Shown piece by piece: positions 1,433 to 37,857 of a stretch of DNA of 64,000 nucleotides. The DNA comes from a virus, in the IMG/VR virus record IMGVR_UViG_3300035698_010295, positions 1-64,000 of that record; one strand, written 5' to 3'. The notes under the pieces were generated by a model. The model had not been told where the DNA came from, searched no databases, and worked only from the letters and a program-made list of their open reading frames with translations. Made by a program: the position numbers and the translations under genes. Within the stretch, counting starts at the first letter, position 1; every line of letters begins with the position of its first letter.

Positions 1433-3108
1433 TAAATATCTCCTTCGTGGCTAGCCTTTTGGTCCTCGCGTGCATCACGATTAGGTTCACCATCTGTATC
1501 ACTAACACCGCGACCAGTCATATTAGACTGGGCTGCTGCTATACGTGCAAGACGCTCTGCATGATCTTGTTTTGCTTTTTCTGAACTTCCAATTGGATAA
1601 CCACGAGCATCTGATGCTGAGTCTAAATCAACAAGACCAGCTTCAAGGTCTTTAAGAATGATCATAGGATCAACATCTAAAATAGAAGCCGTATTAATTT
1701 CCTCATAGATTTTATTTAATTTTTCTTGTGTTATTTTATCACCAAGAACAATAGTGGCAATGCGTTTAATAATTTCACGTTTAAATGTTATACTTGGTGC
1801 ATCATGGAGTAGTGCTTTAAGACGTTCAGCTTCTTGTTGTTTATCAGTATCAGATTTAATAGAGTAGCGTTTAGGGTATGCTATTGTTATTTCTATTTTA
1901 TTACCTTCATACAAGTTCCATATTCTAGCCAACTGGCGTTCTGTAGCTTCGAGTTCTAAGCCTATATATGAGAGACCTGCTTCAAGACCTTGTTGGTCAG
2001 CTTCTTTACTTTCAGCTGATGCCATCTTAGGTTCAACATTTGTTAAGGCAAGGTGAACTAACTCCTTAATTTCCTTCTTTAGTATTTGTTGCTTCTCCAT
2101 ACTCGCCTTAAAAGGCTCAGGAGACGGATGTATGAATCCAGGTCTCTCGGCCCCTAACGGGTACTGGCGGCCATCAGCAGCACCAGTACTCACGCGTTTC
2201 TGACCAGCTACACTATTTTCTTCTGTGTTGTCATTATAAGCGTCATTTGTTCTGGAATATTGATTAACACGATAGTCTACCTGCTCGGTGTAAAATGGGA
2301 AATTACTTCTAATACCATAGGACATATCTGCTGATGCTAAATTAGCTAAAGCGACTTGATAATCAGCAACGTCCACCATCAAAGATTGTGTTAATTCAGC
2401 TATTACGAATGGTATCATAGGAAGATTTAATGTATAAGATTCTGTTGATTTATTATTATATTGATCTATCTGATCACCTTGTTCATTATAGAATTTTACT
2501 ATTGTACCATCAGCTGTTGTTTCTAAATATCGATAACGCTCTATACCATCATTAGGTAAACCCTCAACAAAAGTATTTACATTTTCTCTGAGTAAAAGTT
2601 TCTTAAAATAAACACCATCAATATTATAACCATAATCCCAGCTTAAAATATTTTCTGCCTTAAAAATATAGTAATAAGGATGTCCGTTGTAAATCTTTGA
2701 ATTGTTTGTAATTACAGGCATATCTACATAGATACCAACTTTACCTTTAACTAAAAGTTCTGGTAGGATTTGACGACCTATGTAAATATTCATGGTGCTA
2801 CCAGCTAGGTCTACGCCTCCTTTAAGACCATGCATGACATCATTGTAAAATTCAGAACCGCCCACACGTGTGACGTCTGAGATCCGTTGAAAAATAGAAT
2901 TTTTAACTTCATTAATAGCTTCTTTAGCAAAAGCTGGTGTGTAAGAATATTTCTTACGATTTATAAAATCATCAGTAGTTTCTCTAAGAGAAAATTGTTC
3001 TACATAATCTTCTACAAATTGATGACCTGCTGTATAAGCTGCATCATATTTTAACCAGAGGTCTGATGTATATTCTGGATGTCTTATATCTATTATTTTA
3101 ACGGTCAT
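1432..3108 (-). CDS. Portal protein
   Basis: 558 aa, directly downstream of the large terminase; N-terminal 'HPEY...W', 'GKVGIYVDMP' and 'ENILSW' resemble DUF4055/SPP1-type portals. Confidence 0.8.
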   Translation of the reverse strand: MTVKIIDIRHPEYTSDLWLKYDAAYTAGHQFVEDYVEQFSLRETTDDFINRKKYSYTPAFAKEAINEVKNSIFQRISDVTRVGGSEFYNDVMHGLKGGVDLAGSTMNIYIGRQILPELLVKGKVGIYVDMPVITNNSKIYNGHPYYYIFKAENILSWDYGYNIDGVYFKKLLLRENVNTFVEGLPNDGIERYRYLETTADGTIVKFYNEQGDQIDQYNNKSTESYTLNLPMIPFVIAELTQSLMVDVADYQVALANLASADMSYGIRSNFPFYTEQVDYRVNQYSRTNDAYNDNTEENSVAGQKRVSTGAADGRQYPLGAERPGFIHPSPEPFKASMEKQQILKKEIKELVHLALTNVEPKMASAESKEADQQGLEAGLSYIGLELEATERQLARIWNLYEGNKIEITIAYPKRYSIKSDTDKQQEAERLKALLHDAPSITFKREIIKRIATIVLGDKITQEKLNKIYEEINTASILDVDPMIILKDLEAGLVDLDSASDARGYPIGSSEKAKQDHAERLARIAAAQSNMTGRGVSDTDGEPNRDAREDQKASHEGDI

Positions 3109-4748
3109 AAAGGACTCCTGATGTTTCGATTAACACTTATTCTAGCTAGTATAAGAGCTATTTCTGCATAATTTAAAGCGTGTCCAAAGTGATCATCTGC
3201 TACATTTACATAGCGAGCTATTGGATTACCATGTCTGTCTATTTCAGGTTTACGCACTAGAGCTTTAATATTGCTTCTAAATTCAGTAGGTGTGTCTAGT
3301 GGTATTGTTATTGTTTTATTTGCAAAGCGACCTAATGAAAGATCCAACCAAGAGGTTCGATCAACAGTAACTTGCTGTTCCAATTCTTGACCGTCTTTGT
3401 CTCTTGTTTTATTAATTTGTTTACCAGTCACGGCGTTGCCATAAAAACAAAGCCAAATATAACCCCAGAATCTTTGTGCGAACTCATAGGCTTTACGGCG
3501 TTCAGGGTTGGCATCTATTACTATACCTACTGGTTTATACTTGTAAACTACGAGGTCAAGTTCTTCAAAATCGTGCACCTTATTGATCTCTAGCACCTTA
3601 CAATGTGCATTCATATTGATGTCTGCTGTTTGTATATTGGGGAGAGTATATTCACTTACTACATAGTGCAGCCAGTTGCCAACATCTATACCTAAAGTAA
3701 TGATTCCTTTACTTGGTGGTTCGCTGTTCTTATAATTACCTATGCAAGCTGATATGTCAGAGTCGTTTATACGGGCACCTTTTACTATGTGTGCAAGGCC
3801 AAGCTTTGAATTAAAGAACTCTTGTTCATAAGCTGCATTTGTTTGAGCCAATAAATAACTAGTGGCTAGTTCCCATGGTTTAATTGTTGGAGAGTACATT
3901 TGATTGATATGGTAACCATCATACTCTGCTTTTTTCTTTGGGACCCAATCACCCTTTGTGAGATATTCTTTAGAGTTTGATAATGTAGCTTTACATTCTG
4001 TGCACTTATAATAAGAAGACTTTAATTTTGGATCTGTTGGATCATCACTGGTTATTTCAATTGATTCTGGAAAGATGAACCTAATTTGACGACCACACGC
4101 AGGACAAGGGAAAAAGAACTCTTGTTGGGTTGATTGTTCGAAAAATTTATTGATGCCTGTTTCATCAATTGTAGGAGTACTTATTAACCATGTTTGTTTC
4201 TCGGTCTGACCAGATTGTCTTTCAAAAGCCAGTGGAATGTTATCTTGTGTCATTTCGTCAACTTCGTCGAAGACGAGAAAACCAGCTGGTACACTTTTAA
4301 GTCCAGAGCGGGATCTAGAACCACGGATATATAAGTTAGTGTTACCGGCACGTTTGTGTCCAACGTTCTTGACATCAGAAAATAAGTTTTGGAGGTAAGG
4401 TGATAGCTCCAAGGCTGGGTCAAACCTGGATGCGGAAAAGTCACTAGCATCTGGATTTTTAGCTGGTAATACGTAAAGAGTAGAAATGCCACGAATATCT
4501 AATTTATAAAATGTACGATTAAGGGCTACCTCGGTGAATCCCATTTGAGCAGCTTTTTGACCAACACAAGTTTCTGTGTCAGAATCTGTCATTTTTTTAA
4601 GCCAAGGGTGATGGTCAAAAGTCCAGGGACCTGGAAATGGATTACCCATTATCCTACATTTTTCTGCCCAACGTGAACATTTTTCTAATGTTTTACGTTC
4701 GAGTCCAATATTTATTGTCTTAAAAAGTTGGGCTTTTAAATCATGCAT
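3105..4748 (-). CDS. terL: Terminase large subunit, lambda GpA-like ATPase
   Basis: Walker A variant QKAAQMGFTE, Walker B FDEVD, ISTPT motif, CPACG...CTEC zinc motif, C-terminal RNase H-like GIDVG and DDHFGHA. Confidence 0.9.
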   Translation of the reverse strand: MHDLKAQLFKTINIGLERKTLEKCSRWAEKCRIMGNPFPGPWTFDHHPWLKKMTDSDTETCVGQKAAQMGFTEVALNRTFYKLDIRGISTLYVLPAKNPDASDFSASRFDPALELSPYLQNLFSDVKNVGHKRAGNTNLYIRGSRSRSGLKSVPAGFLVFDEVDEMTQDNIPLAFERQSGQTEKQTWLISTPTIDETGINKFFEQSTQQEFFFPCPACGRQIRFIFPESIEITSDDPTDPKLKSSYYKCTECKATLSNSKEYLTKGDWVPKKKAEYDGYHINQMYSPTIKPWELATSYLLAQTNAAYEQEFFNSKLGLAHIVKGARINDSDISACIGNYKNSEPPSKGIITLGIDVGNWLHYVVSEYTLPNIQTADINMNAHCKVLEINKVHDFEELDLVVYKYKPVGIVIDANPERRKAYEFAQRFWGYIWLCFYGNAVTGKQINKTRDKDGQELEQQVTVDRTSWLDLSLGRFANKTITIPLDTPTEFRSNIKALVRKPEIDRHGNPIARYVNVADDHFGHALNYAEIALILARISVNRNIRSPL

Positions 4749-5295
4749 CTTTTGTTAATATTTCTAAAAGATCTTCTGATATGTTTTCAACGGCTTTTGG
4801 GTCATCCACGTGTTTGTTTATGATACCTATAATTTCGAGGCCAAGTTGGACGACCTGTGTTTTATCTAGGAACTGGCCGGTTAGTTTATCAATTCTTTGG
4901 CAACTGGAAACTAGCTTTTCAATCTTAATAGCTAGGTCACTAATGGTATGGGTCTGTGTAAGCAAGTCTAATGGTGTTTGTATTAAATTGAGTCGTTCCT
5001 CCATAAGGATTCTAAGAATCCCTATTTCATCTTTTAGATTTTTAAGATTATCATTCTCAGCAAATTCTGACATTCTCGCTTGATATTTCGCCAAACGATA
5101 GTTACTAAGACTCTTTTTTTCCAATGATTTTTGTTGGTTTTGTCCGCCACAAGCAGAACAGAAATCAACTTTATCCATAGCTTCATTAGGGCAACGGCTA
5201 CCGCCTTTAATGCCTTTACAAGGGTTGGTATGTGCTTTAGATGTCGGGTGTAACATTGTAGACCTTTCAAAAGTTATATATAGGTATATCGTCAT
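4741..5295 (-). CDS. Probable terminase small subunit (true start may be MLHPTSK, 5256)
   Basis: Immediately upstream of terL with overlap; N-terminal Cys cluster (C..RC...CSAC) followed by a helical/coiled-coil region. Confidence 0.55.
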   Translation of the reverse strand: MTIYLYITFERSTMLHPTSKAHTNPCKGIKGGSRCPNEAMDKVDFCSACGGQNQQKSLEKKSLSNYRLAKYQARMSEFAENDNLKNLKDEIGILRILMEERLNLIQTPLDLLTQTHTISDLAIKIEKLVSSCQRIDKLTGQFLDKTQVVQLGLEIIGIINKHVDDPKAVENISEDLLEILTKDA

Positions 5296-5335
5296 TTAGG
5301 TTAAATAAATCAATTGGGCCAATTTTCGAGCTACT

Positions 5336-5449
5336 AGTGCTTAAGTGCTTAAGTGCTTAAGTGCTTAAGTGCTTAAGTGCTTAAGTGCTTAAGTGCTTAA
5401 GTGCTTAAGTGCTTAGTTCCTAGTTCCTAGTTCCTAGTTCCTTAACAGG
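5336..5449. repeat. Tandem microsatellite (AGTGCTTA)x10 followed by about four TAGTTCC units
   Basis: Read directly from the sequence; degenerate units continue to ~5492. Confidence 0.95.
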
Positions 5450-5691
5450 CCTAGTGCTTAAGTGCCTAAGTGCTTAAGTTCCTTAACAGGTTGATTTGTT
5501 AAATCTTGAAAATTAAAATTTTGAAAATCAAAATACCTAAAATCAAAATTTTGAGATTCTCTTAGTCGGTCCCGCAGGGGGTATGATTTAATATTGGGGA
5601 CGGTTTGATTTAATAATTTTACCCCACCATGTCCCTATTTTATATCCGGGACACAACAACTAACCGTCCCTACTATAACCTGTTAAGGAAC
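5437..5691. repeat. GTTCCTTAACAGG sites: two direct (5437-5449, 5478-5492) and one inverted (5677-5691); candidate packaging (cos/pac) region
   Basis: Perfect 15-bp inverted match between 5478-5492 and 5677-5691, upstream of the small terminase. The packaging role is inference. Confidence 0.5.
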
Positions 5692-5814
5692 GGGATTCAC
5701 TGAATCGTAACCCACTACTATATCTAGAGTTATGTTAATATCTCTAGGATTCAATAGGGTACACACTAATTAAAAAAGAATTCCGCCTGTCACCCCTTAA
5801 CTGTAACTCGTTTG

Positions 5815-5888
5815 TTGACAGTAGTTTATAACTATTTAATATTTTAATTAAATAAATTTATGGTACAAGGCTATTACGCCGATATAAT
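5815..5888 (+). promoter_or_regulatory. Putative sigma70-like rightward promoter
   Basis: TTGACA at 5815-5820, an AT-rich tract, and TATAAT at 5883-5888 just before the structured region. The two hexamers are too far apart to be one promoter. Confidence 0.4.
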
Positions 5889-5894
5889 AAGAGA

Positions 5895-6257
5895 CAGGCC
5901 ATAAGATAGTTGGTAAGGTAGGCAACCGCGTGGCGGTTGACCTTGTGTTCGGAATTGTAAAACGAACACGACGTGAGAGCCTAGCGATAGGACAAACGGA
6001 CCGAATGTGGACAACCCAAAGCGTAGTACGTGGATTACGCCGCGAGGTCCACAAGGGTAAAGCGGATAACAACCGCCATATAACCCGTAGTATGCTGCAA
6101 GATAAAGCTAGTTACTTTATCGTATGGGCGGATACAAAAAGGTGTTGAGGTCTGGACAACAAACAGACCAACACACAACCGGACAGTATCAGCAGGCCAA
6201 CAGGCCACCATCGAAGTAAGCAGGGCATACTACATATAGCCGATAGGTTTTGCGGTT
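5895..6257 (+). ncRNA. Candidate large structured ncRNA (~360 nt)
   Basis: At least nine nested stems with A-rich linkers, e.g. CAACCGC/GCGGTTG, GTGTTCG/CGAACAC, CCTA-GCGA-TAGG, TGTGGAC/GTCCACA, GTAGTATGC/GCATACTAC, GATAAAG/CTTTATC, GTGTTG/CAACAC. No convincing ORF. Confidence 0.6.
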
Positions 6258-6276
6258 GGTTGTAATGGTGAATAGA

Positions 6277-6459
6277 ATGTTGACAACAATTGCAGAAGCT
6301 AACAGGTTTGTAGCAAAAAAAAGATTCCCGAAAACATATAAAGCGAAACCAAGAAAAAAAGATTCTTGGTTGCATTATCGCAAAGACAACAATTCTATAA
6401 CCGGGTGTGCAAAACTCATGCCACAACCCCGCGTTTTTCAGAATATCAAACACGTCTAA
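6277..6459 (+). CDS. Small basic hypothetical protein (60 aa)
   Basis: GGTGA SD-like sequence before ATG 6277; K/R-rich (KKRFPKTYKAKPRKK). Confidence 0.45.
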   Translation: MLTTIAEANRFVAKKRFPKTYKAKPRKKDSWLHYRKDNNSITGCAKLMPQPRVFQNIKHV

Positions 6460-6483
6460 CTATTAGGACAACCAACTGCAAAG

Positions 6484-6634
6484 CCTATCGTATTCACTAG
6501 CTAGTGAAACCCCTTAAGTGTCCCAGGTTAAACCCTGGGTACACCTATCGAAGTCACTAGCCTAGGGTAAACCCTTGGTAGACCAAGGGTAACCCTGGGT
6601 TTGATCGAGTGAATCTAGGCTGTATAGCCTATCG
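6484..6634. repeat. Palindrome cluster with ~60-bp periodicity
   Basis: Perfect palindrome TTCACTAGCTAGTGAA (6493-6508); three CC(C/T/A)AGG..AACCCT(G/T)GG quasi-palindromes; CCTATCG at 6484, 6544 and 6628. Confidence 0.8.
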
Positions 6635-6683
6635 GAACCGGTGACGGGTTGGGTGCTGTGGCCCACAGGAAAGGTGGGTCCAC

Positions 6684-6986
6684 ATGCGTTTCAACAGGAG
6701 TCATTTTGAGGCTCTACCTCAAAAAAGTTTAGTCAATAACCATAAACTGATATGGTTACAAACAAACATGAACCTTTGGTCATACATCAAAGGTGTCATT
6801 GATGTTAGTGAGAAAGTAGTACAATACGGATTTGTCTACAGCGTATATCATGAAAACCCCGTACCTAATTTTGCTTTCATTGCCGATGATGTAGCCTATA
6901 ACTTTGCCCTAGATGGCAAAGTAATTATTATTGGTGATGAAGAAAAGATCAGAGCAGGTACTCTTATGTTTGATAGTTTGATCTAA
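6684..6986 (+). CDS. Hypothetical protein flanked by 26-nt inverted repeats
   Basis: AGGAAAGG SD; 100-aa ORF; inverted repeats at 6641-6666 and 6994-7019. Confidence 0.7.
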   Translation: MRFNRSHFEALPQKSLVNNHKLIWLQTNMNLWSYIKGVIDVSEKVVQYGFVYSVYHENPVPNFAFIADDVAYNFALDGKVIIIGDEEKIRAGTLMFDSLI

Positions 6987-7245
6987 TAAGTTAGTGGGCC
7001 ACAACATCCGACCCGTCACTAATTTAAAATATTTTTGGTATTTTAGATATTTTAGGTATTTTAGTGCTCTGTTTCTTAACAGGTTACAAAAAAACATTCG
7101 ATCTATTGTAAAAGCCGCCAGTATGGCTGCCTTTGCAAACGCCATAACTTGCGAGGGACCGAAAATTTCCTGCTGTTTGGCACGAGATCTACTCAATCGA
7201 ATTAACCTACCAGGGTGAACCCACCACCCTCTTTCCTTCCTTTCC

Positions 7246-7308
7246 TGGGGAGGCCAAAATGCCTAAAATGGCCGTTTTGGAAAATGGCTGTTTTAGGTGG
7301 CCTCCCCA
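7246..7308 (+). other. Long G.U-containing hairpin
   Basis: TGGGGAGGCC...GCCTAAAATGGCCGTTTT-GG-AAAATGGCTGTTTTAGGT-GGCCTCCCCA. Confidence 0.7.
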
Positions 7309-7362
7309 CCTGCCTTTATGTGGGACACCCAACCCGTCGCCTCTCCAGAACCGGAGGTCCAA

Positions 7363-7602
7363 ATGGGTTATTCAAACATGATATCTGATAAGTGTGACCA
7401 TTATACGGCCTACATATTTGGTCAGATATTTAATGGTAGACTAAGTTACTTGAAGCTAGAAATAGATGGGGAAGTAATCTCAGAAGCTGGTAAATGGCAA
7501 AATGTTACCGAAAAGGTACATTGCACATCCCTAATGAATGGCCATAATTCAAAAGTGACAGCGTATGCCCAATACTATACGCTGTTGAAAGACTTAATGT
7601 AA
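7363..7602 (+). CDS. Hypothetical protein (79 aa)
   Basis: GGAGG SD precedes ATG 7363, which is in frame with the track ORF 7297..7602. Confidence 0.7.
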   Translation: MGYSNMISDKCDHYTAYIFGQIFNGRLSYLKLEIDGEVISEAGKWQNVTEKVHCTSLMNGHNSKVTAYAQYYTLLKDLM

Positions 7603-7666
7603 CTAACAGGAGAGGCGATACCCACTCAACCCGTCACCTACTTTCCTTGCTCTACAGGAGACTATC

Positions 7667-8872
7667 ATGAGTAAGGAAATCACATTAGAGGATCTATCAG
7701 TTGAAGAATTTAACCAACAGCAAGAGCTAATGGGTAAATCTCTTCACCTCATACCGAGTGAGTTTACCACAGTGGAGATTGATTCAATCAATTTCCATGC
7801 TGAGTGGCAACCAAGGTTCAAAACAGACCCTACAAGGCTATTCAACGGAATCTGCCTTGAAGGTCTGGCGACACCTCCCAAGGTGTTTCTAGATGAGTCT
7901 GGTGCATACCATGCCCTCGATGGCAGACATCGGTGGGCATCCCTCCAGAAGATCAAGACTGAGTGTCCACTGGTGTGGAAAAAGCACCAGTTCGATGCTG
8001 GGATACCTGTTCAGCTGTTCCAGAACTTGAATCCCACACAGATCTTGAATCTTCGAACCGATGAGGGTCGTGGGCAAGAACCCCTCCAAGGTAAGGCAGA
8101 GTGCTGGCGAGCACTTGAACCTCATTACTCTGTTGGTAAGAGTGATAAGCAGATTGAAACTGAGTATTGGAAGATACTCATAGATACCTGCTGCTCAGTT
8201 GCCAAGCGTAATGATGTGTTGCAAATGTTCGCCAAGGCTACTGACCCGCGAGCATTTGTGGTGGCTATCCACAATGCAACATATATTCATCAGCAACGCT
8301 TTCGGTCTCTGTTCAAAAATCCTAACATCGTTAGAGATCAATGGACAAAGGGCGAACTCGGTGTTGCTGATGAGGCTGGTGTGGCCAGTCTCAAGTTGAC
8401 CGATGCAGATTTAAGAAATCTAGCTAAAGCTCACTCAGGTGACTTAGCAGAAGATGAGGCTGCTGGTACAAAACACAACTATGGTCTGGATAAGCCAGGA
8501 CCAGGTGTGCAGGCAATGTTGTCAAAGATATTAGCTGATAAAGCTAATGGTTCTAAAGCAACGAAACCTACCAGGATGTCAACAGCGGACGTTGAAGCAC
8601 ATGCTTCTAGTGGAAGCTCAAGAGCTGAGAAAATCATCTTTGCCGCTATGAATGGTAAAGAGGCCTCACAAGCTCAATTACCCATCATACTTAAGGCCAT
8701 CGCGAAGTATGAGAAAGCAGATGAGATCGACACCATGTTAGTTCAAGGTGTCCTTAATGCTGTTCTCAAGATGGGTAAGAAAACAGAGGAATCTGTACGG
8801 ATGCAGGTTCTTAATGCAATTGTTGGGCACCAAAAAGAATCAAAAAGTGCCACTAAAATCAGAACAAAGTAA
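7667..8872 (+). CDS. ParB/Srx-like N-terminal domain protein
   Basis: AGGAG SD; 'WQPRF' and 'YHALDGRHRW' motifs of ParB-like domains; 401 aa. Confidence 0.7.
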   Translation: MSKEITLEDLSVEEFNQQQELMGKSLHLIPSEFTTVEIDSINFHAEWQPRFKTDPTRLFNGICLEGLATPPKVFLDESGAYHALDGRHRWASLQKIKTECPLVWKKHQFDAGIPVQLFQNLNPTQILNLRTDEGRGQEPLQGKAECWRALEPHYSVGKSDKQIETEYWKILIDTCCSVAKRNDVLQMFAKATDPRAFVVAIHNATYIHQQRFRSLFKNPNIVRDQWTKGELGVADEAGVASLKLTDADLRNLAKAHSGDLAEDEAAGTKHNYGLDKPGPGVQAMLSKILADKANGSKATKPTRMSTADVEAHASSGSSRAEKIIFAAMNGKEASQAQLPIILKAIAKYEKADEIDTMLVQGVLNAVLKMGKKTEESVRMQVLNAIVGHQKESKSATKIRTK

Positions 8873-8895
8873 CTTAGAGGAAAGTAGGTGACGGT

Positions 8896-8964
8896 GTGTT
8901 TTGGGAAATTGTATTTGGTGCTATAGCTGTGTGGTTCATTATTTGGTTAATCGAACGACACTAA
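8896..8964 (+). CDS. Putative 22-aa membrane micropeptide MFWEIVFGAIAVWFIIWLIERH
   Basis: AGGTGA SD then GTG start; a single hydrophobic stretch; ends right before a terminator. Confidence 0.4.
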   Translation: MFWEIVFGAIAVWFIIWLIERH

Positions 8965-8967
8965 AAT

Positions 8968-9003
8968 GCCCTGTTAAGGCTTTGCCTTAGCAGGGCTTTT
9001 TTT
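8968..9003 (+). terminator. Intrinsic terminator
   Basis: GCCCTGTTAAGGC-TTT-GCCTTAGCAGGGC followed by T7. Confidence 0.85.
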
Positions 9004-9026
9004 GATTTATAAAATCTTGATTTATC

Positions 9027-9071
9027 TCCCTGTTAAGATATGTTCTAAAGTATCTTAACAGGGATTTTTTT
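9027..9071 (+). terminator. Second tandem intrinsic terminator
   Basis: TCCCTGTTAAGATA-N10-TATCTTAACAGGGA followed by T7. Confidence 0.75.
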
Positions 9072-9114
9072 GATTCTTGGACAGGCCTACACCTCAAAGT
9101 CTCGGGCCTGTCAA

Positions 9115-9186
9115 GGTGACTGCCGGAAGTCGAATCCGAATCCATGGAATCACAATCCATTGCTTTACCTATTAAGCTACAGTCAC
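9115..9186 (-). tRNA. tRNA-His (GTG)
   Basis: Cloverleaf: acceptor GTGACTG/CAGTCAC, D arm GCTT/AAGC, anticodon arm ATGGA-TTGTGAT-TCCAT, T loop TTCGACT, C73. CCA and G-1 are not encoded. Confidence 0.85.
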
Positions 9187-9188
9187 AA

Positions 9189-9261
9189 AGCCTCGGGCAG
9201 GATTCGAACCCACGAGGCATTCTATAGCGTATCAATAATGTGCGTCTACCGCCACCGAGGC
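9189..9261 (-). ncRNA. tRNA-like RNA or pseudo-tRNA
   Basis: Intact acceptor (GCCTCGG/CCGAGGC) and T arm (GTGGG-TTCGAAT-CCTGC); shortened D arm; 4-bp stem with a 15-nt loop in place of the anticodon arm. Confidence 0.65.
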
Positions 9262-9400
9262 ACAAAGCATCTTACGCTTAACTTTTCGCCCAAGTACACC
9301 AAATCAATTCTAAGGCCATCTAAGGCCAATGGGGGTAAGTATACCAATATAACATTAAAAGGCAACACACGGGAAGCCAGACACCTTTAAAGGCACCTGA

Positions 9401-9434
9401 GCACCCTTAAGGGGCACCCTTAAGGGGCACCCTT
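9401..9434. repeat. Tandem 13-mer GCACCCTTAAGGG (about 2.5 copies)
   Basis: Read directly; contains the palindrome CCCTTAAGGG. Confidence 0.85.
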
Positions 9435-9473
9435 TAAATGTGGGGACACATCATACAATTAGTTGTAAGGTCA

Positions 9474-9716
9474 TAAGCTCTTTGTTTGCAAAGGGTTACA
9501 ACCGAGATCACATTTGTAAGGCAACTGGCCGGTCCAAAATGGTAACTCGTTAACCTGTAACGAGTTAACCCCTTAACCGGGAGGAAGCTTACGTATTTAC
9601 TATTTTTTTAACCTAAAGTAACTAGTAAAAAAAAGATAGTAAAAAGTGCTATAGGAGTTATAGTTTTTCCCGTATTGTATGGTTATTAACCTAACCCGTT
9701 GCGGGGCAACGGGTTA
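9474..9716. promoter_or_regulatory. Three 25-bp palindromic sites (10-5-10 geometry)
   Basis: 9543-9567 TAACTCGTTA-ACCTG-TAACGAGTTA; 9692-9716 TAACCCGTTG-CGGGG-CAACGGGTTA; degenerate copy at 9474-9498. Confidence 0.55.
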
Positions 9717-9902
9717 ATCCTTACTGTCCCCTACAACTTGCCCAATTTCCGTGCGGATAAGTTTTAAAATAGGCTCAAAAGACTCCGTCCTATGGAGATT
9801 ACCTCGGTAGCCACGTAACTCAAGGCCGGTACACCCAGCCACTAACTTATAACCAAGACCATTACATGCTAATTTAAGAGCTTTAATAATTTCTTTGTGC
9901 AC
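9714..9902 (-). CDS. Hypothetical protein
   Basis: 62-aa ORF overlapping the end of the nuclease gene. Confidence 0.45.
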   Translation of the reverse strand: MHKEIIKALKLACNGLGYKLVAGCTGLELRGYRGNLHRTESFEPILKLIRTEIGQVVGDSKD

Positions 9903-10737
9903 TAGTTAACTCTCTAAAAATGGGGTCTGTATTCATCTTAGCAAGTCGATTTAACCGATCAAGGTCCCAAGCATTTGGGTTGCTAACCCTTTTCCATAGT
10001 GCAGCATACTCAGCATGTAAATTCTGTTGCCAGACAACAGAAGTCACACCAGCATGAATCGCTACACGCGGCGTCTTACCCCAGGCAATCTGATGAATAA
10101 CCTGTAAAGCACGGTGACCTACTGGCAATCCTAAAAGCCACCCATAAACGGTGCTCTGTACTGCCCACGGGGAATCTGTCTCAAACGAAACAGATGCCTT
10201 GTGACCATAGTGATCAACTGGAAAAATAGACTTATGGTGCAGACGTCCTGGGTAAACGTCAACATACCCCGCCTTAGGCGAAGCTTTAGAATAAAATCCA
10301 TTAACCTTCCAATCTAAGATAATCTGTAGGTCACCGCTACAAAAGAGTAGATCAGGAATACCACAAATGGGAACGTCTTCGACGATCCTAATGACACGTT
10401 CTTCCATTTGTATTGTCGAAGACACACCCAGCAAAACCATTAAATCCTGGAGGGCACCACTTGATTTATAAAAATTAAAGACCGTAAGACCATCAACACG
10501 TGCTAAGGCACGATTTTGTGGTTCTACCTGTGCTTTAAACAAACGTTCAAACTCAAAAGCGGGAAACCCGAACGCTTTTCCAATATAAGATTTAACATAA
10601 GCATCAAAAGCAGAACCAACAGCCATTGGTACTGTTTGTGCCAACCTAGGTGGTCGCTCAATAGCCATATATTTCTCAAAAAAAGCATCTTCATCCTGAC
10701 GATATGTCGCTATACTCGACGGGGAAAGATATTCCAT
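9883..10737 (-). CDS. PD-(D/E)XK nuclease (RecB/Cas4-like exonuclease)
   Basis: LSPSSIATY, GSAFD, GIPDLL...ILDWK and QSTVY motifs. Confidence 0.8.
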   Translation of the reverse strand: MEYLSPSSIATYRQDEDAFFEKYMAIERPPRLAQTVPMAVGSAFDAYVKSYIGKAFGFPAFEFERLFKAQVEPQNRALARVDGLTVFNFYKSSGALQDLMVLLGVSSTIQMEERVIRIVEDVPICGIPDLLFCSGDLQIILDWKVNGFYSKASPKAGYVDVYPGRLHHKSIFPVDHYGHKASVSFETDSPWAVQSTVYGWLLGLPVGHRALQVIHQIAWGKTPRVAIHAGVTSVVWQQNLHAEYAALWKRVSNPNAWDLDRLNRLAKMNTDPIFRELTSAQRNY

Positions 10738-26254: not shown

Positions 26255-26603
26255 TATTAGCTTCTTTTAATAATTCATCTAATTCTTTAAAAGTTGGATC
26301 AGTTTGTTTAAGATGATCTATATACTTAGTATTATCTTTAATAGCACACTGTATCTTATTTGTAATATTAACATCTTTAATAGTTTGTTGTATGATTCTA
26401 TCTTGAAGCTCACCAATTATATCACGTAATGCATGAGATAACATGGTATTAACTTCTTCTTCAATATGATCTGTGTTTCTGATACAACAAGCAGATGTAC
26501 TAGTTAAATGTTTACCATCAATACTAGCATTAACTATGAGTTTGACTGTAATATCATAATTAATCTCAAAACATAATTGGTGTTCTATTTCTATATTAAT
26601 CAC
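26208..26603 (-). CDS. Hypothetical protein (3' end overlaps tRNA-Leu)
   Basis: GTGA-coupled to the Ro60 stop. Confidence 0.55.
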   Translation of the reverse strand: MINIEIEHQLCFEINYDITVKLIVNASIDGKHLTSTSACCIRNTDHIEEEVNTMLSHALRDIIGELQDRIIQQTIKDVNITNKIQCAIKDNTKYIDHLKQTDPTFKELDELLKEANSPNGGIGRHKGFKIP

Positions 26604-28159
26604 TTTGAAAACTCCGATATTACATTGGGGGTGGCAGTATCAAAACCCACAACATCTAACATACCAGGATCGCTTGGATCAGCTATTGAAAACTCAGTGG
26701 GTTCCATAGACACTACAATTAATTTAGCATAGATACCTGTTTTCTTGCGATACTTTAATAAAGCTTGTACTGGGTGAATACCACCACACCAAGTTTCATT
26801 ATCGGTATAGATAACAAACGTGTCTACACTTATATTGTGTTCTAAAGCATAGATCATTGGTAATGAGCAGTCTGTCCTACCAAAAGGTAAACCTTTTACC
26901 GTTTTTACAACATCATCAAGTCTTTGTCTAGGAGATATATTTAATGTTGTTAATCTACTTGTAAAAGCTGTAATCACATAATTAGGCTCCACACTAGCAG
27001 TGATTAGAGCCATAGCTGCTGTGCCAATCCGTGGTGAAATACCAGTCATACCTGCAAGATCAGTGTGACTCATTGAACTTGATACATCTAAGGCTAACAT
27101 TGTACGTTTACACGTTGGTTTAACAGTGTCAAAAGAAAGATAGAAAGCTTGATCGAGTGCATCAATAATACTGGTGTTTGGACTCCAAGATAATGAGCCT
27201 TTAAAACCATGTCCCTTAGTGTATGTGTTTAGTGCCACAAGTATAGAGAGTGGATGTACTCTAGCCTTTTTGAGTTGATCTTTGTCTGTTAATCTTTGAA
27301 CTATTAGATTAGCAGACATTGGACCTATAGTACCGACAGATGTCATTTTGCCAAGGTTGCGAATCATAGCAGTCAGTGGCATTTTTTCTAGCAGAGCATC
27401 CCAGATATTTTTGTTGTTTAGCATCTCAGTAGGGATAGCTTCACGAGGTAAATTGTATGCCCTGATCATGTTATATAGGATTTCTGACTCACAAATTTGT
27501 GCATCTTCATACGCTCGTACTATGGCAGGTGCAGTTGGTGTAAGTTTGCCTTGTGTTATCCAGTGATACAAAGATTGATATGTTGAATTTGGTGGTATGG
27601 GATGACTCTTACGTAGAGCATCTCTATGTGACCAGCCATCTCTTTGTCGATATTTTATACATTGGTAAGCTAAAGCATCTACATCCTTGTCATTATACCA
27701 ATTAGCTACAGCAGTACGTAATAAGCGACCCCACCCGCGGAATTGTTGAACAAATTCCAAGAAATGAAATAGATGTGTACCTATTCTGGCAACCTTGGGC
27801 AACTGAGCCAAGGCGTAGTTCTTTTCATCACCAATACTAGCTGCCATAGCCAAAGCAAAAAGGCAAGGGTCATTTTTAGGTGCCCTGCCTTCAGTACTAA
27901 TCTCAGTGATTTTGTCAATCGTTCTTTTAGCATCCAAATCTAAGCAACGTAAAACACACTTAGCATTATCGCTGGTGAGCTTATGTTCTTTAACATAGTA
28001 AGTGCCACCCTCTGAGCCTAGGATTAAGAATCTCTCAAGACGGTACCAATCACTAATTGACCAGACAAAGCCTCCGGCATTGTTGCCAACCTGGTTAGAA
28101 CCAGGGATTGCCTCCGATTGTGGTGTTACTAGTGTGCTAAAATTCTGGTAAGTCTTCAT
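26600..28159 (-). CDS. rsr: Ro60 / TROVE-vWA RNA-binding protein (Rsr-like)
   Basis: NNAGGFV, RFLILGSEGGTYY, GWGR, KYRQRDGWSHRD, MPLTAMIRNLGKM, RVHP, MIDAS DVSSSM, TDCSLPM, TDNETW, DVVGFD; AGGAG SD. Confidence 0.96.
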   Translation of the reverse strand: MKTYQNFSTLVTPQSEAIPGSNQVGNNAGGFVWSISDWYRLERFLILGSEGGTYYVKEHKLTSDNAKCVLRCLDLDAKRTIDKITEISTEGRAPKNDPCLFALAMAASIGDEKNYALAQLPKVARIGTHLFHFLEFVQQFRGWGRLLRTAVANWYNDKDVDALAYQCIKYRQRDGWSHRDALRKSHPIPPNSTYQSLYHWITQGKLTPTAPAIVRAYEDAQICESEILYNMIRAYNLPREAIPTEMLNNKNIWDALLEKMPLTAMIRNLGKMTSVGTIGPMSANLIVQRLTDKDQLKKARVHPLSILVALNTYTKGHGFKGSLSWSPNTSIIDALDQAFYLSFDTVKPTCKRTMLALDVSSSMSHTDLAGMTGISPRIGTAAMALITASVEPNYVITAFTSRLTTLNISPRQRLDDVVKTVKGLPFGRTDCSLPMIYALEHNISVDTFVIYTDNETWCGGIHPVQALLKYRKKTGIYAKLIVVSMEPTEFSIADPSDPGMLDVVGFDTATPNVISEFSK

Positions 28160-34778: not shown

Positions 34779-34973
34779 TTTGGCACCACAGTTTGCTCCA
34801 TAGCATCTTTGATGCCTTCAAAAAATTGATTTAATAAACCAATTTTGACACCTTTACAAAAGATGAAATTTTCATTTTTATCAAACCAAGCACACCTTGT
34901 AATGACAAACTTTTTTTGAGTTAAAAGGGAAATCAAAGCCATGACTACAATTTATCTTTACTCCATCAATCAT
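34775..34973 (-). pseudogene. Frameshifted paralog of 34593..34778
   Basis: MIDGVKINC...VCHYK, then one extra G (~34895), then CAWFDKNENFIFCKGVKIG, which matches CTKVCAWF...C...IG of the neighbour. Confidence 0.45.
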
Positions 34974-37857
34974 TACTTTTTTCATCCAACACCTTTATAA
35001 TATTACCTAAACTCAAACTTTGTAATTGTTTCTTTTGCTTCAAATTATCCAGTACGTATTTATCAGTAGGTAAGTGAAAAAGATCAATAATAGTGGCACC
35101 TCTATTATTATCCATACCAGGACGATGTATCCTGTCTTCAGATTGAAGCCTATACATGCCATTGAAATCATTACTATAGTATACAATAGATGGTGAGGCT
35201 GTAAAAGTAAGACCTTCAGATCCAGAAGCAGGGTGACCAATAACACACAACAAAGGAAAAGCATTACGAAATTCATTGTATTTTGGATGCGATAAATCCA
35301 TAGCTTGTAAGGCTTCATTAAGGTCATAACTATTTCCCTCTTTATCGGAAACAGTCCATCCTTGGCCGTCAATCCTTATTACGATCCAGCCAGCTTCTTT
35401 AACCATTTTACAAAGATGATCTATAGATGCTGTAAAACCGGCATAGAAAACGAGTCTAGCGACTTCCATATGTTCATCAAGTAAATTAAGTACAACATCA
35501 TTTTTAGGGCAGTCAATAAAGGTTGAGTCACGCTCATAAATAGATTGAATTCCAGTGCTACCACAATTTGGACATGGAATTTCTTCATATTCAAGAGGAT
35601 CAGTGTCTGGCTTAGGATGTTGTATTGTTTTGTTCCCGAGACAAAGACTACATGTTTCGGTTCCAGTTTTGACTTTAGTATATTGAAAACCATCACTTAA
35701 CTCTCGTAAGAGTGTTAGTGCTTTAATTGTGCTTGATGCTGTATTAGCGAGTGTTCTAGCAACATTTAAAATCGATTGTGTTGGTTTCACCTCAATTATG
35801 CGATACTGTTTATCCGGAAGATCAAAACAATCTTTTTTAAATTGGACTAAAACAAGTCCTTTAAGTCGTTTACTTAATTTTGAAACTTCATTTATTGATC
35901 TTGTAAACTCGTGATACCCTGGCTCAGTTAGATTGTGATTTATTGCATCTTTAAACTGACCACAAATTTTACATTTATTATCATCATCCCACCATGTAAT
36001 TAGCTTTGGATATGATCCACCATATTGTGCTTCACACATCTCTGTGAGACACAATCTATTACGAAATTTAGCTTCAGTTCCCTCTCTTAAAAAACCGGGC
36101 ATTGCTACTTCACAATTATGTGCGATAAATCCATTAGCAGAAAATTTATGTATACCTGGAACTTCTATATCATAGACATCTTCTATAGAATCTTGTTCAA
36201 CAGATTCTACTGTTGCTACTGGTGTGCTGGTCCAATTATGTCTATTTTTGATTCTCTTAATCAAGCGTTCTTTTTTCTTTGTTTGATTAAAATCAATAAT
36301 ATATTGAAATTTAATAGCTTCAGTATTTATTATTTGAATTTCATAACAAAAATCTGATGTATTAATTTTGCGTCCATCAATATATGATATACCTACATTT
36401 TTTTTAATTCTTATCTTACAATAAATACCTAAAGACTGCAATAATAATTGAATTTTATAGATTCTATCTTTATCTACTTGTGCTAATGTTATTCTTAAAG
36501 TATCTTTAGAAACACTACCATCAGCATCAAACATACCTCTTAAAAATCCAATAATAAAACTACTAGATGCAGTCATTATATTGTGGTCAATAATCTTTTT
36601 TGGTGTGATACCCCACTCACGAACAATATCATTAATTCTACCACCATGAATTATAAGGGCTTCACCACTAGAAGTAATATTATCTTGTTCAAGTATTTTA
36701 CATACTTCTGGTATCAAGCAAAAATCACCCTCAAAAAATTGAAGGCGACTATAGTAACCACTTTCTTTTTTAGTAACATTACCATCACCAAACAACAACC
36801 CTAAAATGTAACCTTCATTTTCTGATCCTGTTCCCTCCCAGTGATTGTATGATTCTGGCGTTGAAATTTTGATTTCATCACCAATTTCTAGCTCACATAA
36901 TTTTCTCCAAAGCTTTAAGCCATCATAATTAACAAGGAATTTTTGATCTTCTGTAGCTCTTACAGAATACCCTTCATTAGTGTTAATCTTATAAAGTTGC
37001 TTAGTTCCAGTTTTAAAGAAACCATTAGTCTTTACTTTGTGGTTATCAACTAATATATTAGTCTTTTGATGAATTAACTCTTTAATTTGTTTTAGACCTT
37101 GATCCGTAGTTATCCAAGTATCATCAGAAAAGCATTGCCAAAACCAATCAGTTGGGGCCTTTGGGGCAGGTGTTCCTGTTAAACAGATAACAAACCCTTT
37201 TTCTTTGTGTTCTAATCGTACACTATTAGCCAAGTGTGATGCTGCTTGTGAACGTTGTGAAGTGGAATTTTTAATTCGAGCACTTTCATCAAACACAACA
37301 CCTTGTGGGGCAACTCCATCCCATGACTCTAAATCAATACGAAACTTATCATAAGTTAAGAGTCGCGGTTTTACCCGCGACTCCCACTTCAACAATTCCA
37401 ACTCAACACTTTTAAGGGCTGATTTAGGAGCTATGTACCACCAGTCTTTTAGACCAGATTGCTCCATAACTTCAATAGCTGCAAGTGATTTTCCAACACC
37501 CATCTCACCAGCAAACATACAATAGTGTCTGGTTAGTATGTGCCTTACTGCTTCAACTTGATGTTTAAACAATGGGCGGTCAGTGACACAATTTAATAAA
37601 TCAGCATCATAAGGAGCATATGGATTTTCATTTTTAAGGTATTTTAATTGGAAAACATTTCTCGGTGTAAGAGGTGCACTCCAAATTTTACGTGGATTAT
37701 TATCAAAGCCATGCCATTTTGCACCTGACATATTTTTGATTTCATCCATCAACTTGCGATTAAAACGAAACTTAAAATATATTCTACCATCTTCAACAGC
37801 AACTTGAGCAGGTATTAAACGATTTTCTGCTCGTAACTTCATCATTTGATAATCCAT
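34966..37857 (-). CDS. SNF2-family helicase containing an intein
   Basis: EMGVGKS, FDESA, LTGTP, GSEGLT, QSEDRIHR. Confidence 0.92.
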   Translation of the reverse strand: MDYQMMKLRAENRLIPAQVAVEDGRIYFKFRFNRKLMDEIKNMSGAKWHGFDNNPRKIWSAPLTPRNVFQLKYLKNENPYAPYDADLLNCVTDRPLFKHQVEAVRHILTRHYCMFAGEMGVGKSLAAIEVMEQSGLKDWWYIAPKSALKSVELELLKWESRVKPRLLTYDKFRIDLESWDGVAPQGVVFDESARIKNSTSQRSQAASHLANSVRLEHKEKGFVICLTGTPAPKAPTDWFWQCFSDDTWITTDQGLKQIKELIHQKTNILVDNHKVKTNGFFKTGTKQLYKINTNEGYSVRATEDQKFLVNYDGLKLWRKLCELEIGDEIKISTPESYNHWEGTGSENEGYILGLLFGDGNVTKKESGYYSRLQFFEGDFCLIPEVCKILEQDNITSSGEALIIHGGRINDIVREWGITPKKIIDHNIMTASSSFIIGFLRGMFDADGSVSKDTLRITLAQVDKDRIYKIQLLLQSLGIYCKIRIKKNVGISYIDGRKINTSDFCYEIQIINTEAIKFQYIIDFNQTKKKERLIKRIKNRHNWTSTPVATVESVEQDSIEDVYDIEVPGIHKFSANGFIAHNCEVAMPGFLREGTEAKFRNRLCLTEMCEAQYGGSYPKLITWWDDDNKCKICGQFKDAINHNLTEPGYHEFTRSINEVSKLSKRLKGLVLVQFKKDCFDLPDKQYRIIEVKPTQSILNVARTLANTASSTIKALTLLRELSDGFQYTKVKTGTETCSLCLGNKTIQHPKPDTDPLEYEEIPCPNCGSTGIQSIYERDSTFIDCPKNDVVLNLLDEHMEVARLVFYAGFTASIDHLCKMVKEAGWIVIRIDGQGWTVSDKEGNSYDLNEALQAMDLSHPKYNEFRNAFPLLCVIGHPASGSEGLTFTASPSIVYYSNDFNGMYRLQSEDRIHRPGMDNNRGATIIDLFHLPTDKYVLDNLKQKKQLQSLSLGNIIKVLDEKSND
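36115..37134 (-). mobile_element. Intein with LAGLIDADG homing endonuclease (340 aa)
   Basis: Starts CFSDDTWITT, ends VYDIEV...NGFIAHN followed by Cys+1; contains LGLLFGDG and LRGMFDADG. Confidence 0.93.

Follow-up and report, generated by a model that had tools for sequence, protein, structure and literature searches.

Among known systems, the operon described here comes closest to the RNase III stems that surround rRNAs and to the RNase III sites of the T7 early transcripts. The T7 early sites are local intergenic hairpins, not stems that enclose genes. In the mRNAs of hok-type type I toxins, fold-back pairing between the 5' and 3' ends across the ORF controls both stability and translation. 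The splicing of Dscam exon 6 involves a competition between selector sequences for one docking site. Among phages, the PeSLs of T4-type phages are direct repeats made of a sigma-70 promoter and a local terminator hairpin (PMC2839356, PMC4122927). As for the enzyme, the idealised substrate of E. coli RNase III is 22 bp long, and sequence (reactivity) boxes modulate its cleavage (PMC3867540). We searched the literature for gene-enclosing stems in phage mRNAs and found none described. Here, we describe an operon in which every gene is bracketed by an inverted repeat, and a 15-base motif that recurs in the arms of these repeats.

The window, i.e. the whole stretch of DNA that was analysed, is 64,000 nucleotides long and covers bases 1-64000 of a 77,667-base IMG/VR phage record, which is 83% complete. 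The G+C content of the phage genome is 35.5%, and near-identical sequence of the phage is present in four public runs labelled salt-lake metagenome; no RNA run is listed among the public runs that contain it. Nearly all genes of the phage are oriented leftward, including a gpA-type large terminase (3105-4748) and a small-terminase-like gene (4741-5295). Next comes a short rightward island, the plus-strand operon of a cos-type phage (about 5850-9070), which a repeat-rich gap of about 1 kb separates from the small-terminase-like gene. It encodes four proteins on the plus strand: g0, a small basic protein of 64 aa (6265-6459); g1, of 100 aa (6684-6986), and g2, of 79 aa (7363-7602), both without known family; and g3, of 401 aa (7667-8872), which has a ParB/KorB/Noc-like fold and a DGRHRW motif. 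Two intrinsic-terminator-like hairpins (8968-9064, plus strand) close the operon. Searches with g0-g3 in Pfam, PHROGs and NCBIfam gave no match, nor did blastn of 5300-9200 against phage records, and the Rfam analysis of 5000-10000 returned only a tRNA-His and sub-threshold noise.

A sequence-only reading of this locus had reported a 15-base docking sequence, GTGACGGGTTGGGTG (6641-6655), complementary to three downstream partners: CATCCGACCCGTCAC (7005-7019, partner 1), CACCCAACCCGTCGC (7326-7340, partner 2) and CACTCAACCCGTCAC (7623-7637, partner 3). These positions are correct, and the four copies are the only strong ones in the 77.7-kb record. They are exactly the matches obtained with at most two mismatches; allowing up to three gives six matches for 0.69 expected, a number that none of 100 shuffles reached. 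The 9-mer core ACCCGTCRC occurs four times for 0.18 expected, and nowhere else in the 77,667-base record. A degenerate fifth copy in docking orientation, GGTGACGG (8887-8894), lies within the 3' arm of the g3 stem. Every deviation of the partners from the perfect complement (T7007, G7010, G7339 and T7626) is a transition: on the plus strand it makes a G.U pair with the docking arm, whereas on the minus strand it would be an A.C mismatch. The claim that all differences among the partners are G.U-compatible on the plus strand is thus borne out (four out of four). An exact scan of viral contigs with the 15-mer gave 29 single chance matches and no multi-copy locus. We also considered the motif as the promoter of a phage RNA polymerase and rejected the idea: the motif is confined to a 1-kb island, and the large proteins include no recognisable RNA polymerase.

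The 15-mer is not a free-standing element. It forms the outer portion of both arms of the g1 stem and of the 5' arms of g2 and g3. Every gene of the island is bracketed by an inverted repeat flush against its ORF: the 5' arms end 1-19 nt upstream of the start codon and the 3' arms start 5-8 nt past the stop. In the g1 stem, the complementarity between the docking arm and partner 1 extends to 27 bp (6640-6666/6994-7020, plus strand); the outer 16 nt of its 5' arm (6640-6655) are the docking sequence, and its 3' arm contains partner 1. The ribosome-binding site of g1 begins directly after the 5' arm and the stop codon falls 7 nt before the 3' arm. The docking arm is complementary over 16 bp to each of the three partners. 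The other two partners do overlap the stems of the genes that follow, as had been proposed. Partner 2 (7326-7341) runs into the 5' arm that precedes g2 (7336-7346), the two spanning 7326-7346 on the plus strand, and the 3' arm, GGAGAGGCGAT, lies at 7609-7619 on the same strand; the g2 stem has only 10-11 bp and p=0/300 against shuffles, but p=0.05 in the ensemble. Partner 3 (7623-7638) shares bases with the 5' arm that precedes g3 (7631-7648), the two together spanning 7623-7648 on the plus strand, and the 3' arm, at 8877-8912 on that strand, contains the degenerate fifth copy. The g3 stem pairs 17-18 bp contiguously (7631-7648/8877-8894), about 28 with bulges, and the minimum free energy (MFE) fold lengthens it outward (7615-7630/8896-8912). 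The g0 stem lacks the 15-mer; its plus-strand arms (6241-6263 and 6468-6490) form 23 bp including two G.U pairs, with p=0/300 against shuffled flanks, and it is present in the MFE fold. The end of its 5' arm, CCGATAGG, has additional partial partners (CCTATCG) at 6544 and 6628. All four stems beat 300 shuffles of their own flanks. Long-range inverted repeats scoring at least 38 are found only at 6241-8894 in the 77.7-kb genome, and shuffled sequence gives 0-1. The g1, g0 and g3 stems reach the two turns of helix (about 20-22 bp) of an RNase III-type substrate; the g2 stem falls short of them.

This layout recurs in related phages. We found eight g3 homologues, at 43-56% identity, and compared the loci of five of them, three from viral contigs (L034-L036) and two from metagenomes (L037-L038); a scan of viral contigs with the single g3 protein found no relative, and a search of genome contigs with the g3 alignment found nothing. 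The three loci from viral contigs have the same synteny as the window, i.e. terminase, small terminase, gap, then rightward small genes and g3. Across the window and the five loci, 16 of the 18 plus-strand ORFs have significant flanking stems (p<0.01 against shuffled flanks), including all six g3 homologues. The arm sequences are unrelated between loci, and the stems of the relatives have 12-30 bp. The sequences are too diverged for column-wise covariation, and conservation was judged by the presence of stems and by the ratio of G.U to A.C. In these comparisons, structure is conserved and sequence is turned over. Four relatives identified through their terminases (L040, L044, L045 and L050) have a matching gene-enclosing layout. 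Two of them, L040 and L045, have an enclosure at two levels: an inner stem closes a small gene, and an outer stem of 27-32 bp surrounds this gene together with an adjoining ORF, which in L040 is a distant g3 homologue. These nested stems are read on the reverse complement, upstream of the terminase match. The small proteins are hardly alike. In an all-against-all blastp the sole match was between the C-termini of g0 and of a small protein of L034 (L034_a); one from L035 (L035_a) is similar by eye, and the three have the C-terminal motif RVFxNIK in common.

Part of the core is shared more widely. CCCGTC or GACGGG lies in or beside the arms flanking g3 in the window, L035, L037 and L038, about 135-140 nt either side of g3 in L036, and within an arm in L045. 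The core of L034 is wholly different, and all three stems of L044 carry CTAGGGCGG in the same orientation. One hexamer persists although the proteins are only 37-56% identical, which suggests that the core has a sequence-specific reader; this could be a double-strand RNase or a DNA-binding protein. In L037, a near-copy of the motif of the window, GACCCGTCACC (2411-2421), lies 2 nt past the stop of g3, where its local pairing with GACGGG at 2456 could compete with the long-range g3 stem.

Are these repeats used as RNA or as DNA, and on which strand? Folding of 6630-7030 gives z=-6.8, and both the MFE and the centroid structures contain the closing stem; the minus strand folds similarly well (z=-6.6). 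Since an inverted repeat folds on either strand, the strand call depends on the mismatches. We counted them in 24 gene-flanking stems and two alternative pairings of docking and selector sequences, in the window phage and its relatives; G.T and A.C were scored equally, and each stem was oriented by the ORF it encloses. On the sense strand, transition mismatches are G.U 27 times and A.C 8 times (binomial p=0.002), a bias that a strand-asymmetric mutation bias could partly mimic. The counts point to pairing in the sense-strand RNA, in preference to a role in DNA. The RNA-level pairing of the plus strand put forward by the sequence-only reading is therefore supported twice, by the differences among its partners and by this bias. 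In the DNA contigs of the salt-lake runs, whose depth is low, the stems contain no variants.

The sequence-only reading had gone further and proposed a switch, in which the docking sequence chooses among three mutually exclusive partners. The one-to-many complementarity on which it was built is real and recurs in relatives; the three-way choice is unsupported. The partition function computed for 6600-8970 pairs the docking arm with partner 1 at a probability of about 1.0 and with partners 2 and 3 at 0.00, and places partner 3 in its own g3 stem (0.85-1.0). The duplexes of the docking arm with partners 1, 2 and 3 have energies of -53.7, -42.4 and -40.3 kcal/mol, i.e. the first is 11-13 kcal/mol more stable than the others. 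Because partner 1 makes the most stable duplex, is made first and leaves no toehold, a three-way choice is not to be expected.

We favour a simpler account, to which we give an even chance of being right: the 15-mer is the shared outer core of long-range RNA stems that enclose the genes of one operon. The island from g0 to g3 would be transcribed as one polycistronic RNA, and a stem would form co-transcriptionally around each cistron, making the transcript a chain of stem-closed loops with one gene each. The pairings formed would be those of the docking arm with partner 1 (27 bp, g1) and of partner 3 with 8877-8894 (at least 18 bp, g3). Partner 2 would enter either the weak 11-bp stem of g2 or a local hairpin that covers the ribosome-binding site of this gene. 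The docking arm would be able to pair with partners 2 and 3 because the stems of the operon share the core CCCGTCAC/GTGACGGG, and not because anything is chosen. Stems of 18-30 bp would be substrates for a double-strand-specific RNase, e.g. the host RNase III; the phage encodes no RNase III gene. Cutting might release single-gene messages with their ends still paired, or else the stems might act as clamps that protect the cistrons from decay. The RNase could recognise the shared core as a common element, or the core could be a linker for the exchange of cassettes between phages. Taking the core as incidental leaves two observations unexplained: its copies co-vary as a set between phages, and in three phages the outer core is better matched to the distal partners.

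A rival reading is a genuine docking/selector device, or a relay that is handed over from one partner to the next, in which the docking arm pairs with partners 1, 2 and 3 in turn or as alternatives. The core might, for example, find a new mate in partner 2 or 3 after cleavage of the g1 stem, perhaps in trans, so that the hairpin on the g2 ribosome-binding site is opened or the g3 stem undone, which would time or apportion the expression of the three genes. The same one-to-many topology exists with unrelated sequences in relatives: L034 has three partners, L037 two, and L035 one family with five partners and another with two. The alternative duplexes are strong in their own right, and all differences among the copies keep the pairing through G.U. 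When the outer 16-nt core is considered alone, partners 2 and 3 (-34.5 and -31.7 kcal/mol) pair better than the nearest partner (-29.8), because the G.U pairs sit in the latter; the distal partners are likewise the better match in L034 and L037. Partner 2 also contributes bases to a local hairpin (7331-7344/7353-7369) that covers the Shine-Dalgarno sequence and the AUG of g2. Yet, the ensemble gives the alternative pairings no weight, partner 1 is transcribed before the others and leaves them no free toehold on the docking arm, and the alternative pairings would be paid for with the g3 stem (-43.6 kcal/mol). The masking of a start site by a selector is seen only for g2, and neither for g3 nor in L034, L035 and L037. 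Finally, in L044 the 5' arms and the 3' arms all share one core, which looks like a general rule of shared cores and fits it better than a single dock. We thus consider such a device unlikely. One version of the relay, in which the docking core, left in a weak G.U-containing duplex after an RNase cut, shifts to the better-matched partners 2 and 3, strikes us as a distinctly long shot; the leader fragment would then possibly act in trans, opening the g2 start and undoing the g3 clamp.

The nature of g3 brings in a different explanation. Its structural model (pLDDT 78) matches ParB, KorB and Noc in Foldseek searches (E 5e-5 to 8e-4); it has no Pfam ParB match. The repeats might then be DNA sites for a sequence-specific protein, either this ParB/KorB-like g3 or the basic g0, for example centromere or operator sites, with complementarity a by-product of their orientation. 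Proteins of this fold usually act at sites clustered close to the gene that encodes them, the CCCGTC hexamer is beside or near g3 in five of the six related loci, and the copies of the motif change together from phage to phage, as a protein and its sites do. But the 15-mer is not palindromic, and palindromic sites of 13-16 bp are what characterises the sites of ParB and KorB. The complementarity exceeds the motif by sequence private to each stem, 11 bp more in g1 and 10 bp in g3, and the g0 stem and many stems of the relatives enclose their ORFs equally tightly without the motif. The degenerate copies (partner 1 in the window, and those in L035 and L037) have changed solely by C>T or A>G substitutions that preserve pairing, and DNA sites would not be expected to show the 27:8 bias towards G.U. 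There is also a better parS-like candidate at 6520-6600. The interval from g0 to the docking arm has three imperfect palindromes, CCNRGG-(T)TAAAC-CCYNGG (6522-6539, 6561-6578 and 6579-6597), and CCTATCGNANTCACTAGC occurs in it twice (6484 and 6544). From their sequence, these repeats of 6484-6640 would suit the role of parS or operator sites for the ParB-like g3 better than the 15-mer does. We retain DNA sites as an explanation of the 15-mer because g3 folds like ParB, KorB and Noc, and think it quite improbable.

Recombination could also account for short repeats at gene boundaries. One possibility is that the direct copies at gene junctions are linkers through which co-infecting phages gain and lose cassettes, much as PeSLs do, with no role in RNA beyond what each stem needs for itself. 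The copies are placed exactly at cassette junctions, the small genes vary between relatives while g3 and g0 are kept, and between partners 1 and 2 there is a 'cassette' devoid of ORFs. PeSL-mediated modular shuffling has been documented in T4-type phages (PMC2839356). The resemblance extends to a short conserved motif at the boundaries of small, non-essential phage genes. Yet PeSLs combine a promoter and a terminator, whereas no promoter- or terminator-like site overlaps any of the four copies, and the phage motif engages instead in long-range pairing around genes. The repeats are just 15-16 nt long, and linkers explain neither the inverted copy nor the G.U pattern. It is thus very unlikely that the motif is no more than a linker.

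The other possibility, offered by the sequence-only reading as its alternative, is a DNA shufflon with site-specific inversion between the inverted copy and any direct one. One inverted and three direct 15-mers are, formally, the layout of a multiple-inversion system. Such inversions would, however, turn whole genes away from the promoter and not swap the ends of a protein, and the private stems of g0, g2 and g3 would be left unexplained. No recombinase had been seen in the window, and this extends to the whole 77.7-kb record, 83% complete, in which nothing matches PF00239 (Resolvase) or PF00589 (Phage_integrase) under searches whose positive controls matched. A 2151-nt contig spans all four sites colinearly and with no differences. 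The contigs of four runs, searched for inversions at these sites, have no strand-switch joints, a search in which rare forms could be missed. We regard the shufflon as extremely improbable.

If gene-enclosing stems are the better account, how do they compare with the systems described so far? The leader-trailer stems of the 16S and 23S rRNAs and the T7 early sites also use double-stranded RNA of about two turns to bound the units of a polycistronic transcript. In this phage the units are single protein-coding genes with their own ribosome-binding sites, cleavage is only proposed, and the stems of one operon share an outer core, unlike those of the rRNA and T7 systems. As in the hok mRNA, the ends of a message would pair across a whole ORF; hok, however, is a single toxin gene with an antisense RNA, whereas the phage operon strings ordinary genes together and shows no antisense partner. 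Dscam exon 6 is similar in having one sequence complementary to several downstream ones in mutually exclusive pairings, but it belongs to eukaryotic splicing and its selectors are nearly equivalent. In the phage the nearest partner is strongly favoured and the distal partners have mates of their own. What is particular to the operon of the window is the shared core and the cross-complementarity that results from it.

If the stems act as we propose, a group of uncultured cos-type phages packs each gene of one operon into its own stem-closed RNA loop, i.e. it applies the logic of bacterial rRNA processing to mRNA. The shared core lets the arms of different stems cross-pair, and the system is concrete and easily mutated. 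Do phages use long-range mRNA duplexes for processing, for stability or for timing? Do the cores of such duplexes serve as recognition elements for nucleases, and is the cross-pairing between stems regulatory? Were the relay true, one 16-nt sequence would set the order or the ratio in which successive phage genes are expressed, a prokaryotic counterpart of docking/selector control.

Other features of the locus deserve mention. The ORF-less spacer between partners 1 and 2 (7021-7325, plus strand, about 300 nt) contains TATTTTAGG repeats and a strong GGGGAGGCCA...TGGCCTCCCC hairpin at 7246-7308, and may represent a small RNA or a decayed cassette. Past the g3 stem and ahead of the terminators, a GTG-started ORF of 22 codons, MFWEIVFGAIAVWFIIWLIERH (8896-8964), would encode a strongly hydrophobic peptide, with AGGTGA just upstream, within the 3' arm of the g3 stem. 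A second family of motifs, CTTAACAGG/CCTGTTAAG, has about seven occurrences in the window (5437-5449, 5478-5492, 5677-5691, 7071-7086, 8968-8978 and 9027-9064), located near the terminase-side repeats, in the ORF-less spacer and within both terminator stems. The sequence TTTTTTTGATT(T/C)A..AAAT lies directly 3' of the operon terminator in the window (8996-9020), in L037 (about 2510-2545) and in L038 (about 1545-1575), three loci whose stems are otherwise unrelated.

On the terminase side, about 12 tandem 8-mers (GTGCTTAA) followed by GTTCCTA units occupy 5324-5440, beside the small-terminase gene, and the relatives have heptamer arrays of their own at the matching place, e.g. TTTCCTG about nine times in L035 (4663-4727). 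By analogy with lambda-type terminases, cos may lie within the 5300-5700 repeats. If it does, one might speculate that the island is the end of the genome that is injected first and is transcribed inward, which would fit an early operon. Elsewhere in the window, a leftward gene for a SNF2-type helicase (34966-37857) is split by an intein with a LAGLIDADG homing-endonuclease domain. The phage also encodes, leftward, a Ro60 homologue (26600-28159) with TROVE and Ro60 vWA domains (E 2e-46 and 2.5e-62), an RNA-surveillance protein that may be relevant to the heavily structured mRNAs of the same genome.
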